A stretch of DNA of 64,000 nucleotides from a virus (taxonomy: Duplodnaviria > Caudoviricetes). Positions 3,705-8,542 of this stretch are shown here, piece after piece (the stretch's first letter is position 1; the number at the start of each line of letters is the position of its first letter). A program made the position numbers and the translations under genes. The DNA is taken from IMG/VR virus record IMGVR_UViG_3300037589_000163, positions 10,016 through 74,015 of that record; one strand, given 5' to 3'. The notes under the pieces are model-generated. The model saw only the letters and a list, made by a program, of their open reading frames with translations. It did not search any database and was not told the DNA's origin.

Positions 3705-4274
3705 GTGTGACTGGGACAACAGGAAGTGAGGCGAGTGCTGAGCTGTGAAGAGGTGGGGTAGGGTGTGAAAGAGATGTGAGAAGACACCGGGGGGGGGTAT
3801 TTTCTTTTATCGAGATGCCCCGGTGTGAATAGTACCGAGCAGAACTATTATGAGATTACCCACACCCGAAAAAATCTGATAATATTATCTCTATAATGTT
3901 CTCTTAAAAATATATAATAATTATATATATAATGATTATCAAAACATTGTGTATTATTATCTATAAATATTATCTTTAATAATGAGGTTTTGTCTCCCCC
4001 TTAATGGTATGGGAGTTTGCCCCTGTAAACGACAATATCTCCCCCGCTTCTCTTTCTCTAGTATTTGAGAGGAGAAGGGTAGGCCTGGGGGGCAAAACAG
4101 ATAGGGATGGGGGGAAGCTACTCCACAGGGAGGGATCTTGTCTATCCCCGTCGGATCCTTTTGAAGGCCCGAAACTCTTGTCTATCTCCAGCGAAGCCCA
4201 AAAGCCCAGGGAAAGCCTGGGTTGTTGGAGAGATAGGGGCCAGAAAAAAATATCAGGAATTGCTCAGGAAAAAC
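3705..4274. other. Probable genome-terminus / collapsed terminal-repeat region
   Basis: Non-coding stretch where the early (-) and late (+) gene blocks diverge; contains a G9 tract (3789-3797), a very AT-rich block (~3860-3985) and a hairpin-rich block. The position is inferred from N4 genome organisation. Confidence 0.5.
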
Positions 4275-4520
4275 TCAGTGGAGGGTGGGTGAAACCATCT
4301 TGGGGAGCTCGATTGTGAAATATCCCTTCTCAGGGTTGCCACAGCAGACATAGGTAATCTCCTCTGTCTCGAGATCCTCGATCTCATCTCCGAACCGGTC
4401 ATAGGCCTCAATGATGGGAAGCATGGTGCCGTCGGTCATGACGACCTGCTCGGTGTTCAGATCGATGCCGAGGAATTCAAAAGGGAGGGGTTCGCTCTTG
4501 TCACCCGGGCCCCCGTTCAT
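4275..4520 (-). CDS. Hypothetical acidic protein
   Basis: Listed as 4275..4535; the ATG at 4520 has the better RBS context. Confidence 0.55.
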   Translation of the reverse strand: MNGGPGDKSEPLPFEFLGIDLNTEQVVMTDGTMLPIIEAYDRFGDEIEDLETEEITYVCCGNPEKGYFTIELPKMVSPTLH

Positions 4521-4672
4521 TCCTGGTTCCCCCACAGGGAGAGCTCAACGGCACTTAGATAATGCTTGATAATGGTGCTTGAAAATCTCACTTGATTATT
4601 CCTTCTAATGGTGATCTAAAACCTAAGTCCGATTTTTAGAAAATCGAAATCACATTAGCAAGGAAAATCATC

Positions 4673-4918
4673 ATGAATTTTGCAGATGCAGTGAACAGCC
4701 TCCACGACGGGAAGACCGTCGCCAGGAAAGGCTGGAACGGGAAAGGCATGTGGCTGGTCAAGGCTGACCGTGGAACTTTCGAGATTGACGGCAAGGTCGG
4801 CGGAAACCTGATCCCCTTCATCGTCATGAAGACCGCCGACAACAAGTTCGTTCCCTGGCTCGCTTCCCAGAGCGACGTCCTGTCGAATGACTGGGAAATC
4901 GTTGGGGAGGACTCCTGA
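4673..4918 (+). CDS. tad2: DUF2829 / Tad2-like protein (Thoeris anti-defence sponge family)
   Basis: MNFADAV...GKTVARKGWNGKGMWL...VPWLASQSDVLSNDWEIV is the DUF2829 signature; AAGGA RBS upstream. Confidence 0.85.
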   Translation: MNFADAVNSLHDGKTVARKGWNGKGMWLVKADRGTFEIDGKVGGNLIPFIVMKTADNKFVPWLASQSDVLSNDWEIVGEDS

Positions 4919-5586
4919 TGGCCGTCCGCGTATTTGAAGAAGACCTGATCGCTCATGCGAAAGCCAGGAATGCCGTCCGAGTTACCCTCCAGGATGTCGA
5001 GAACTCGATCGCCCACGAACGCTACTTCACCGCAGCCGAAGGTGCCTATGGCCGTGCAATCACGTCGAACGAATACCGTAAGCAGATCCCGGCGGCCCTC
5101 AACTACCTGACCTTCTGTGTCCTGGTGATGAAGAACGGTTTCACGGTGACAGGTGAATCAGCCTGTGCCGATCCTCGCAGCTTCGACCATAACATCGGCC
5201 AGGAGATTGCCCGCAAGAACGCGATCGGCAAGATCTGGATGCTGCTCGGTTTCCAGCTCCGCACCAAAATGTTCGATGAAGAGCAGCGTCTCGAGCAGAT
5301 GGCCTTCCAGCCTTCCGGCGACATGGTCACCTATGTCGGCACGAAAGTCGTCAATGCGCGGCCGATGAATCGTCAGGCCTACAATGACCTGCGTGGGTGG
5401 AAGCTTCCGGACGATGAAGACGGATCCGACGAGGGTTACCTGGTCGAATACACCGACCGCAAGGAAGTCCCTCCTCTTGTGCAGGGGTTCAAGGGATACA
5501 TCTCCTGGTCTCCGAAAGAGGTCTTCGAGAACGCCTATGAACCGGTGGCCGGCGAGAGGAACGTTTATCAGGAGAGCCTCCTGTGA
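4918..5586 (+). CDS. Fusion: N4 gp49/Sf6 gp66-family domain (probably Acb4-like) plus C-terminal YxGTK...GYLVEY...SWSPKxVF domain
   Basis: N-terminal half has LTFCVLVMKNGFTVTGESACADPRSFDHNIGQEIARKNAIGKIW. C-terminal half has YVGTKVVNARPM...DEGYLVEY...YISWSPKEVFENAY. Start overlaps the stop of the previous gene (TGATG). Confidence 0.8.
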   Translation: MAVRVFEEDLIAHAKARNAVRVTLQDVENSIAHERYFTAAEGAYGRAITSNEYRKQIPAALNYLTFCVLVMKNGFTVTGESACADPRSFDHNIGQEIARKNAIGKIWMLLGFQLRTKMFDEEQRLEQMAFQPSGDMVTYVGTKVVNARPMNRQAYNDLRGWKLPDDEDGSDEGYLVEYTDRKEVPPLVQGFKGYISWSPKEVFENAYEPVAGERNVYQESLL

Positions 5587-5909
5587 GCTTCCTCATTTTC
5601 CTCTTCGTGTTCGCCGTTCTGACCTTCTTCCAGAATGCAGTCTTCACCGCGGTATCCCGATCCAGGAACTCCGGCGATGTCTTCTACCACTGGAAATGGT
5701 CGCTGCTGTCGAACAGCATCTGGTTCATCGCCCAGATCTTCATCATGAAAATGATCTGGGACGCGATCAATGACAGTTCCTACTGGAAGATCGCGGCCGC
5801 CGGCTGGGTGTACGTCATCACCACATCGAGCGGATCGGCGTGGATGATGTCCAGGATGCTGAAGAGCGAGCAGGGGAAGAGGCGGGTCGGGGCTGGTTTG
5901 CAGCCTTGA
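5583..5909 (+). CDS. Small multi-pass membrane protein (3-4 TM)
   Basis: GTG start overlaps the upstream TGA; hydrophobic helices; contains FQN..FT.VSRSRNSG and a basic GKRRVG tail. Confidence 0.75.
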   Translation: MSFLIFLFVFAVLTFFQNAVFTAVSRSRNSGDVFYHWKWSLLSNSIWFIAQIFIMKMIWDAINDSSYWKIAAAGWVYVITTSSGSAWMMSRMLKSEQGKRRVGAGLQP

Positions 5910-6090: not shown

Positions 6091-6915
6091 ATGAGTACTC
6101 CGTCCCTTTTTAATACCCCACCCCTTTTTAAGGATAATTCGGAGGTCTCCCAGGCGCCGGAGGCGCCACAGCATGTGGAGGAGCCGCAGGCGCCGGCTGT
6201 CGAGAAGAACCCGGCAATGACCCCCACGATCGGACTGATCACCGAGAATGATCTCAAGAGCGCTCTGCCAGCCACCCTGAGATCCTCCGTCAGCCAGTCC
6301 CTGGTCGACAAGGTCAACAGGATCTCAAGTGACCCGATCGCAGCGGAGAACATCCGCAATAATTTCGTCAGCTACACATCGGTGATGAAGGAAGGCCGCT
6401 TCAAGATCGAGGATTACCTCAATGCGGTGGCTTACGTTTCCTACAAGCTGATGGGGTACAACAACGAGGAATCTTACGCGAAGACCTTTCCGCAGCGTTA
6501 CGCGGACCTGCTCGCGAAGAACACCTCCAAGAAGGACATCTCGGCCTATGTGTCGGCGTATCACCGCGGCAAGCTGGTGAACCTGATCATGGAACAGTCC
6601 CTGGTTCCCTCCTGGGTCCTAAATCAGGATCTCTTTCAGAAAGCGCTCAACGTGCAGGCCGAACTGATGGCGACGGCCACCAGTGAGAAGGTGCGTACCG
6701 ATGCCGCCAACTCGATCCTTACCCACCTCAAGAAGCCTGAAAAGGACTTCCAGCTGAACATCAACACGGAAGATTCCTCCGGCATGCGGGAGATGCGGGA
6801 CACTCTTTCCCAGCTGGCGGCCCAACAGAGGCAGATGATCGAACAGGGTCAGATGAAAACGATCGATGTCGCGGCAGCTCGTCTCGTCAACAAAAAGGAA
6901 GACGACGATGTCTGA
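6091..6915 (+). CDS. N4 gp69-like protein (putative terminase small subunit)
   Basis: 274 aa directly upstream of TerL; YLNAVAYVSYKLMG and SEKVRTDAANSIL patterns. Confidence 0.75.
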   Translation: MSTPSLFNTPPLFKDNSEVSQAPEAPQHVEEPQAPAVEKNPAMTPTIGLITENDLKSALPATLRSSVSQSLVDKVNRISSDPIAAENIRNNFVSYTSVMKEGRFKIEDYLNAVAYVSYKLMGYNNEESYAKTFPQRYADLLAKNTSKKDISAYVSAYHRGKLVNLIMEQSLVPSWVLNQDLFQKALNVQAELMATATSEKVRTDAANSILTHLKKPEKDFQLNINTEDSSGMREMRDTLSQLAAQQRQMIEQGQMKTIDVAAARLVNKKEDDDV

Positions 6916-8542
6916 GGCGCTCGAAACGATCCTGGCCAGCGGCCGCAACATCATCCGGAAAGAGCTGGATGAATGGCTCGACGAGGTTGATTACCAGACA
7001 CTCAATGACAACAGCTACATCCCTTCGGAATTCTCCCTGGTCTTCATGAACTTCATCAAGCTGGTGAATGGAGAAGAAGGAGAAAGCCACAAGACACCGC
7101 CGGTCCACCTCAAGATGCTCGACAAGCTCTCGAGCTCGACTTCAGAGAATGTGGTCAATTTGTGTTTCCGTGGTGCAGCGAAGACCACAATTTTCGCCGA
7201 GTACCTGTTCCTGTTCATTGCTCTCTACGGGTATCTCCCCAACTTCGGGAAGATTACCGGCGCCATCTACGTGTCCGACTCCATGGAGAACGGCGTGAAA
7301 TCGATGCGGAAGAACATCGAATTCCGTTATGAAAACTCCGACTTCTTGAAAGAATGGATCCCTTACGCAAAGTTCACGGACAACTATATCGAGTTCGTCA
7401 ATCGTGACGGTCACCGGTTCGGTATCAAGATGTTCGGTGCTCAAACCGGTATCCGCGGTACCAAGATTTTTGGTAAGCGGCCGGTGCTCGCGGTACTCGA
7501 TGACTTGCTCGACGATGATGACGCCAAGTCGCCGGCAGCCCTGAAGTCGATCAACGACACGATCTACAAGGGCATCAATCACGCCTTGGACCCAACAAGG
7601 CGAAAGATCATCTTCAATGGCACGCCCTTTTCAAAAGACGACCCAATGGTGGAAGCCGTTGAATCGGGAGCCTGGGACGTCAATGTGTGGCCGGTCTGTG
7701 AAAGATTCCCGTGCTCCAGGGAAGAGTTCTGCGGTGCCTGGGAGGATCGATTCAACTTCGATTACATCCTGAAGCAATACGAAGACGCCGTGCTCAACGG
7801 GAAGGTCGAGGCCTTCATGCAGGAGTTGATGCTGCGGATCTCCTCCGAGGAAGAGCGTCTGGTCCAGGATGCGGAGATCAAGGAATACTCCCGGGCCCAA
7901 CTTCTCAACAATACAGGCTCGTTCAACTTCTACATCACAACGGACTTTGCCACCTCGGACAAACAGTCTGCCGACTATTCAGTCATCTCGGTGTGGGCTT
8001 TGAACTCGAACGGGGATTGGTTCTGGGTCGATGGTGAATGCGAACGCATGACCATGGACAAGTCGATCAATCATCTCTTCCGTCTGGTTCAGAAATACCG
8101 GCCGCAATCCGTCGGCGTGGAAGTGTCGGCTCAGCAGAAGGCATTCATCAAGTGGCTTCAGGGAGAGATGATGCATCGGAACATCTGGTTCAATTTTGCA
8201 TCGTCGGAGAAGTCGGGTGAGCCTGGTATTCGTCCAGTGGTCAACAAATTGACCCGCTTCAACCTGGTTGTGCCCCTGTTCAAGGCCGGCAAGATGTTTT
8301 TCCCCCAGGAAATGAAAGCCAGCAAGATCATGGGTCTGTTCTACGGCCAGCTGCGATTGGCAACCCGTAACGGCTTGAAAGGCAAAGACGACTGCATCGA
8401 TACGATCTCGATGCTGATGTACCTCAATGCCTGGAGACCAAGCGAAAAAGCCCCAAAAATGATTGGACACAACGGCGGTCCGGAATGGGATGAAGACGAA
8501 GAAGTCGAGCAGGTATCTGCTTTGTCCTCTTACATTGTTTGA
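6908..8542 (+). CDS. terL: Terminase large subunit (N4 gp68-like)
   Basis: CFRGAAKTT (Walker A), LAVLDDL (Walker B), TDFATS..ADYS and KDDCIDTISML nuclease motifs. Start reassigned to MSEALE at 6908. Confidence 0.93.
   Translation: MSEALETILASGRNIIRKELDEWLDEVDYQTLNDNSYIPSEFSLVFMNFIKLVNGEEGESHKTPPVHLKMLDKLSSSTSENVVNLCFRGAAKTTIFAEYLFLFIALYGYLPNFGKITGAIYVSDSMENGVKSMRKNIEFRYENSDFLKEWIPYAKFTDNYIEFVNRDGHRFGIKMFGAQTGIRGTKIFGKRPVLAVLDDLLDDDDAKSPAALKSINDTIYKGINHALDPTRRKIIFNGTPFSKDDPMVEAVESGAWDVNVWPVCERFPCSREEFCGAWEDRFNFDYILKQYEDAVLNGKVEAFMQELMLRISSEEERLVQDAEIKEYSRAQLLNNTGSFNFYITTDFATSDKQSADYSVISVWALNSNGDWFWVDGECERMTMDKSINHLFRLVQKYRPQSVGVEVSAQQKAFIKWLQGEMMHRNIWFNFASSEKSGEPGIRPVVNKLTRFNLVVPLFKAGKMFFPQEMKASKIMGLFYGQLRLATRNGLKGKDDCIDTISMLMYLNAWRPSEKAPKMIGHNGGPEWDEDEEVEQVSALSSYIV

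Follow-up and report, generated by a model that had tools for sequence, protein, structure and literature searches.

A sponge operon near the terminase gene

The window analyzed here is a stretch of 64,000 nucleotides that corresponds to bases 10016-74015 of a complete 74,015-base virus record. Its terminase gene exhibits 71-73% DNA identity to N4-like phages of Pseudomonas, Achromobacter, Stenotrophomonas and Erwinia. Approximately 1 kb upstream of the gene encoding the terminase large subunit (6866-8542) is an operon of sponge genes (4673-5909). The first of these (4673-4918, + strand) encodes an 81-aa stand-alone Tad2-like sponge that matches PF11195/DUF2829 over the full model (Pfam E 4e-25). 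The second (4918-5586, +), identified from its open reading frame and translation and modeled with AlphaFold2, encodes a 222-aa protein (P0001) in which an Acb4 (anti-CBASS 4) sponge domain is fused to a further domain, referred to here as X. The third member of the operon (5583-5909, +) encodes a hydrophobic protein of 108 aa, related to phrog_33664 (E 4.7e-20), a family of unknown function. As read in the sequence, the stop codon of gene 1 and the start codon of gene 2 overlap as TGATG, while the gene 2 stop and the gene 3 start overlap as GTGA, with an AGGAG located 8 nt upstream of the gene 3 start; the three genes are therefore translationally coupled, in the order Tad2, Acb4-X, membrane protein. 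The stretch of ~950 bases that precedes the operon (window positions about 3720-4670) contains no tRNA and no ORF with a family match, and the 86-aa ORF on the minus strand at 4275-4535 found no match in Pfam or in PHROGs.

The position of this operon differs from that of its counterpart in phage N4, where gp48 and gp49 are found in the hot spot between the primase and virion RNA polymerase genes. In phage CB1, a gene similar to N4 gp48 (gp89) is also located near the terminase. N4-like phages may thus possess a second anti-signaling site in the vicinity of the terminase gene.

Within the 222-aa protein, residues 22-117 (4981-5268, +) form the Acb4 domain, which covers positions 1-81 of the 82-position PF13876 model with a score of 105.2 bits (E 2.6e-30) against a cut-off of 27. 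In the full-length AlphaFold2 model (pLDDT 93.3, pTM 0.78) a long helix, residues 91-126, precedes X; the end of this helix and a short linker make up the connector at residues 118-135 (5269-5322, +). Domain X occupies residues about 136-210 (5323-5547, +), as delimited by the family profile and in line with the models and with conservation. The C-terminal tail, residues 211-222 (5548-5583, +), is unconserved in the alignments and was modeled with low confidence, its last two blocks having pLDDT values of 60 and then 42.

PF13876 is the Acb4 family, whose founding member, SPO1 Acb4, assembles into a tetramer and sponges up 3'3'-cGAMP along with related dinucleotides (bioRxiv 10.1101/2024.12.30.630793; PMC13712596). 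A profile built from Acb4-X proteins matches the SPO1 Acb4 structure, 9E4W, with an E value of 8.4e-8, and the top Foldseek matches of the full-length model are 9E4W chains (probability 1.00, TM-score 0.66-0.75 by target length, E only 0.02), placing the N-terminal two-fifths of the window protein in this family by profile as well as by fold. The initial annotation had taken this part of the protein for a probable sponge, and it can now be assigned to Acb4. SPO1 Acb4 is a single-domain protein of 97 aa, whereas in the window protein the C-terminal helix runs on further, with X attached to it. By virtue of its family membership, the N-terminal domain should form a tetramer and sequester CBASS-type cyclic dinucleotides. 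As a whole, the protein is a standard member of the Acb4 sponge family to which an unusual additional module is attached.

Borders, conservation and database searches of domain X

The initial annotation had described the end of the protein (5305-5586, i.e., residues 130-222 and the stop codon) as a separate domain with strong motifs. All of these motifs are present, YVGTKVVNARPM at residues 139-150, RGWKLPDDEDGSDEGYLVEY at 159-178 and YISWSPKEVFENAY at 194-207; Pfam coverage is confined to residues 22-117, and the C-terminal domain folded alone by AlphaFold2 gave a pLDDT of 88 and a pTM of 0.75. In the full-length model, the order of elements in X is strand 1 (137-140), strand 2 (144-149), a helix (152-159), strand 3 (173-178), strand 4 (195-199) and a second helix (200-206). 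X is a separate, autonomous alpha/beta domain with a core of ~75 aa.

Conservation within X is extremely high. In an alignment of 120 diverse members (clusters at 50% identity), 30 columns are at least 85% conserved, and roughly half of these positions hold charged, polar or aromatic residues. In P0001 numbering, the near-invariant residues include K143, R152, Y155, N156, R159, W161, E167, D171, E177, Y178, Y194, S196, W197, S198 and Y207; no histidine is found among the positions conserved at 85% or more. The window's X scores 127.9 bits against the HMM of these 120 members and retains 29 of the 30 conserved positions, the sole change being a Leu in place of a loop Asn. On average the members carry a net charge of -3.9, which makes the domain acidic. 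The acidic loop D-E-N-G-x-D-E-G-Y-L-V-E was considered as an EF-hand-like metal site and rejected, as its canonical positions 6 and 8 do not fit and it has no flanking helices.

Searches of family and structure databases returned little for X. Pfam assigns nothing to residues 130-222 and NCBIfam has no model for the domain. The C-terminal part of the protein matches three PHROG families, all of unknown function, among them phrog_872, in which X is followed by Tad2/DUF2829; X corresponds to the N-terminal part of both phrog_872 and phrog_9467. Single-sequence and profile searches of the PDB sequences detected nothing for X, the only matches arising from those parts of the profiles that represent Tad2 or Acb4, and a Foldseek search of the PDB with X alone produced no match with an E value below 1. 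A chromodomain/chromoshadow/Tudor-like fold is not claimed for X, the best Z of 3.2 from VIA-align against 48,161 chains being below the noise level of that tool. A search of BFVD with X recovered uncharacterized homologues only. A solved relative of X was missed by the sequence, Foldseek and VIA searches because the structure of CB1 gp68, discussed below, is absent from the copy of the PDB that was searched.

Whether the domain had already been named was left open by the initial annotation. It is unnamed in Pfam, NCBIfam and the PHROG annotations, and it goes unmentioned in the published work on Acb4, sponge diversity, RyDEP and PanDA. Nor is X among the seven sponge families of an October 2026 review (PMC13712596) or the seven of a November 2026 review. 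X is therefore without a name, yet it has not gone wholly unnoticed, since it is described in the RyR Tad preprint.

Distribution and fusion partners

An exhaustive HMMER search over 1.84 billion cluster representatives (50% identity) identified X in 1,494 clusters at E<=1e-3, of which 699 were retained at E<=1e-10, and tblastn located it in 127 complete phage records, including phage N4. The matches come from viral contigs and prophages. X occurs in N4-like, SU10-like, P22-like and other phages, and is conserved across phages of Proteobacteria, Bacteroidota and Clostridia. The homolog in phage N4 is gp49 (YP_950527), which like phrog_872 carries the same domain at about 55% identity. In gp49, X is N-terminal and its partner is Tad2, with the N4 Acb4 encoded by a separate gene, gp48, whereas in the window X is located C-terminal to Acb4. 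The same three domains are thus divided differently between the two genes, as Acb4 and X-Tad2 in N4 and as Tad2 and Acb4-X in the window phage.

Among the best 150 cluster representatives, the Pfam families that co-occur with X are Sequestin (PF21825) in 48, Tad2 (PF11195) in 42, Acb4 (PF13876) in 40, the Acb2/Tad1 hairpin (PF24729) in 2 and YceI in 1, with no others. A profile search limited to proteins of at least 185 aa yielded 1,363 more X proteins, and 117 of the best 120 of these carry at least one sponge family. These 120 include triple fusions of the types Acb4-X-Sequestin, Acb4-X-Tad2 and X-Sequestin-Tad2, as well as an X-Acb4-RyR protein. The initial annotation had mentioned a fusion of this domain to DUF2829, which is the architecture of N4 gp49 and phrog_872, and had supposed it to fuse with two sponge families; at least five are now evident (Tad2, Acb4, Sequestin, the Acb2/Tad1 hairpin and RyR Tad). 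The family HMM and list of fusion partners that it had proposed as a check have produced almost exclusively sponge families.

Several of the retrieved proteins contain additional sequence. The only non-sponge partner among the 150 representatives is a YceI-like domain (PF04264, E 7e-7) on one X protein; YceI is a lipid- and isoprenoid-binding fold. In P0328, a metagenomic protein of 299 aa, a WDGH domain (PF25311, E 3.6e-38) lies between X and Tad2 in a single polypeptide, and as part of a sponge fusion this domain is a candidate for a further module. P0307/P0314 (506 aa), P0323, P0341, P0326 and P0332 consist of X, one sponge domain and 150-330 residues to which Pfam assigns nothing; these stretches may carry additional modules. 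The X-Tad2 proteins P0289 and P0312 also contain AP2 and HNH_3 domains, both of homing-endonuclease types, either as read-through gene calls or as true fusions; this is a hint that such anti-defence genes are accompanied by homing endonucleases.

The position of X within these proteins is variable. Of the 382 retrieved X proteins, 276 have the domain at the N-terminus, 54 have it internally, 36 have it at the C-terminus and 16 consist of it alone, and no tandem X-X protein was found among them. Because it is found in any order, X behaves as a module and not as an extension of one partner. The stand-alone proteins are 73-100 aa in length and start and stop at the borders of the domain. They make up only about 4-6% of the retrieved proteins; in the ESM Atlas, X clusters of 77-93 aa have ~100 members each, 86-90% of them viral. 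On the SU10-like and N4-like phage contigs that carry stand-alone X genes, no recognizable sponge was found among the neighbors. The suggestion that a stand-alone X is one half of a split fusion, located beside a sponge gene, was accordingly rejected, as the neighboring genes have no sponge family matches. X associates almost exclusively with sponge domains.

The commonest partner, Sequestin, is itself a small module that occurs either by itself or in fusions with Tad2 and Acb4, and it acts as a sponge for 3'cADPR. It was discovered through a search for the Pfam families that occur in fusions with Tad2 or Acb4 (Tal et al., bioRxiv 10.1101/2025.07.12.664507). That search could not have detected X because its query took only Pfam-annotated partners, and X has no Pfam entry. 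The two modules are unrelated: Sequestin is an all-helical antiparallel dimer, is mostly stand-alone, and has a ligand and activity established by experiment, whereas X is alpha/beta, mostly fused, and only a candidate. Lockin, Acb5 and TadIV-1, which are likewise small phage proteins acting as oligomers on immune nucleotides, appear to differ from X by their descriptions. Lockin, compared here by description, has a beta-rich hexameric cog fold, and no Lockin chain was among the fold matches of X; it is also reported to be absent from the INPHARED complete phage genomes (Tal et al., bioRxiv 10.1101/2025.07.12.664507), whereas X is present in 127 such records. Acb5 depends on a conserved His, catalytic or binding, together with Trp and Arg and is found mainly in actinophages, and X, having no conserved His, does not correspond to it. 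The TadIV-1 protomer consists of two helices with a flexible N-terminal loop and is restricted to the Straboviridae, whereas X, with four predicted strands and two short predicted helices, occurs in other phage groups and does not appear to belong with it.

Possible functions of domain X

The nearest studied relative of X is RyR Tad, the product of gp68 of Pectobacterium phage vB_PatP_CB1. A search with the X profile recovers the N-terminal domain of gp68 at 27.0 bits (E 2.2e-7) over HMM positions 2-74, and BLASTP aligns X with gp68 at 33% identity (E 4e-5); gp68 residues 1-86 are homologous to X over the whole domain. The motifs Y..K..A.PM, EGYLV.Y and Y.SWSP..VF are shared. As with X, the gp68 N-domain is fused to a sponge and is encoded by an N4-like phage, its partner being a RyR domain; RyR domains are anti-Thoeris sponges or glycosidases (bioRxiv 10.64898/2026.06.04.730250; 10.64898/2026.05.28.727677). 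A preprint of June 2026 says of the N-domain that it is a fold of unknown function and that it often makes up an ORF by itself. The gp68 crystal structure reported there shows this domain dimerized by strand swapping, with a sheet of five strands and with gcADPR sitting in the RyR domain, and residues 1-86 alone exhibited no anti-Thoeris I activity (bioRxiv 10.64898/2026.06.04.730250). However, gp68 is a divergent relative: it lacks about ten of the near-invariant positions of X (R152, N156, R159, G160, W161, E177, the N-containing loop and others), and two loop deletions set it further apart from the X profile. Judged by its sequence, the gp68 N-domain may be a degenerate member that has kept only a structural role. 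That it was inactive against a single defence system is hardly informative about canonical X.

In the reading preferred here, to which we give a probability of about 0.4, X constitutes a module of the sponge type that is independent, forms a dimer and binds a ligand. The gene product would then be a two-module counter-defence protein consisting of an Acb4 sponge and X, in which X, as the second and independent module, would form a symmetric dimer by exchange of its first beta-strand. The near-invariant polar and aromatic residues of X would bind a small immune-signaling molecule other than 3'cADPR, and this extra ligand would widen the range of signals neutralized by the operon. We infer the dimer from the published crystal structure of a distant homologue, gp68, and the ligand binding and anti-defence role are similarly inferred. 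A more specific form of this proposal, which we put forward tentatively as a possibility, is that X is the prototype fold of an additional sponge family, a strand-swapped dimer that sequesters a signal missed by its usual partners; examples of such a signal are a cyclic oligoadenylate, a cyclic mononucleotide, N7-cADPR/His-ADPR, or one that has yet to be described. The initial annotation had labeled X a candidate for a new sponge family. The term candidate is a fair one, and the new family is a hypothesis.

Several observations argue for a sponge-type module. X keeps almost exclusively the company of sponges, in any order, and also exists in stand-alone form; as with sponges in general, the domain is under about 100 aa, is phage-encoded and is fused to other sponge families. 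The number of conserved positions, 30, exceeds what packing or a dimer interface usually needs. The same fusion logic led to Sequestin, which proved to be a sponge, and the Acb4-X gene is translationally coupled to a Tad2 gene. Other observations count against this reading. The gp68 relative, divergent as it is, is inactive against Thoeris I and its N-domain acts in dimerization; X is mostly fused, whereas Sequestin is mostly stand-alone; and stand-alone X, which was eligible by its size for a published structure-guided screen of short phage proteins, is not among the hits reported. The acidic character of X counts against it as well. The pockets of known sponges are positively charged. A net negative charge neither shows nor excludes a local basic pocket in X, in which K143, R152 and R159 are conserved.

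The main rival reading is that X is a structural accessory, a strand-swapped dimerization clamp with no ligand of its own that would link sponge protomers to one another and thereby boost the stability, cooperativity or effective affinity of the sponge to which it is fused. It draws on the same gp68 crystal, in which the homologous N-domain is a domain-swapped dimer containing no ligand and is inactive alone (bioRxiv 10.64898/2026.06.04.730250). Over 90% of the X domains retrieved have an oligomeric sponge as their fusion partner, and a two-fold module fits dimeric, tetrameric and hexameric partners alike (oligomeric states as given in PMC13712596). A mere dimerizing handle is nevertheless disfavored because Tad2, Acb4, Sequestin and Acb2 already oligomerize and work without X, because free X genes are found away from any recognizable sponge, and because about fifteen near-invariant charged, polar and aromatic residues are difficult to account for by dimerization alone. 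Many of those residues are missing from gp68, the only member that has been assayed. On this balance a purely structural role for X is considered somewhat less likely than ligand binding, but to be taken seriously.

A role directed against a protein is less probable again, and we regard it as doubtful. In this case X would be an anti-defence module acting on a host sensor, an effector, or a guard that detects sponges, such as Panoptes/PanDA, and its fusion to sponges would simply combine counter-defences in one polypeptide. Non-sponge inhibitors (Tad3-8, Bes1/2) do share phage loci with sponges, the acidity of X resembles that of many protein-directed or mimic inhibitors, and sponge-triggered guards restrict N4-like phages, which would provide a plausible selective pressure. 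However, the very high conservation of X across phages of Proteobacteria, Bacteroidota and Clostridia is more in keeping with a small molecule that is universal than with a host protein that evolves fast, and N4 and Bas69 are still restricted by PanDA through Acb4; as N4 carries an X-Tad2 protein, X is not obviously protective against this guard.

It is very improbable that X is an enzyme, small and oligomeric, acting on an immune signal by cleavage or modification in the manner of Acb5 or a glycosidase-type RyDEP: the invariant acidic cluster E167, D171 and E177, the conserved Arg, Lys, Ser and Tyr residues, and the precedent of very small oligomeric signal-cleaving proteins such as Acb5 are set against a domain with no conserved histidine and no recognizable catalytic motif, no enzyme fold relative in Foldseek searches of the PDB or in VIA-align searches of 48,161 chains, and a length of ~75 residues that is very small for an enzyme. 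The remaining probability falls to X being unrelated to defence.

Phage sponges are a fast-moving field, with seven families by October 2026 and RyR-domain proteins now being added, and with each new family so far, novel ligand chemistry or further bacterial guard systems have come to light. X is found in well over a thousand sequence clusters, including model phage N4 and phages of the BASEL collection, and has no database entry; its function is directly testable with standard assays in N4 and related model phages. If X is only a dimerizing clamp, one shared module would tune the assembly of unrelated sponges. If instead X binds a signal, it would be a common but so far missing element of the immune evasion of phages, one that could also serve to probe for the cognate defence, and should it prove to be the founding fold of a further sponge family, its ligand could be used to discover the matching bacterial defence.
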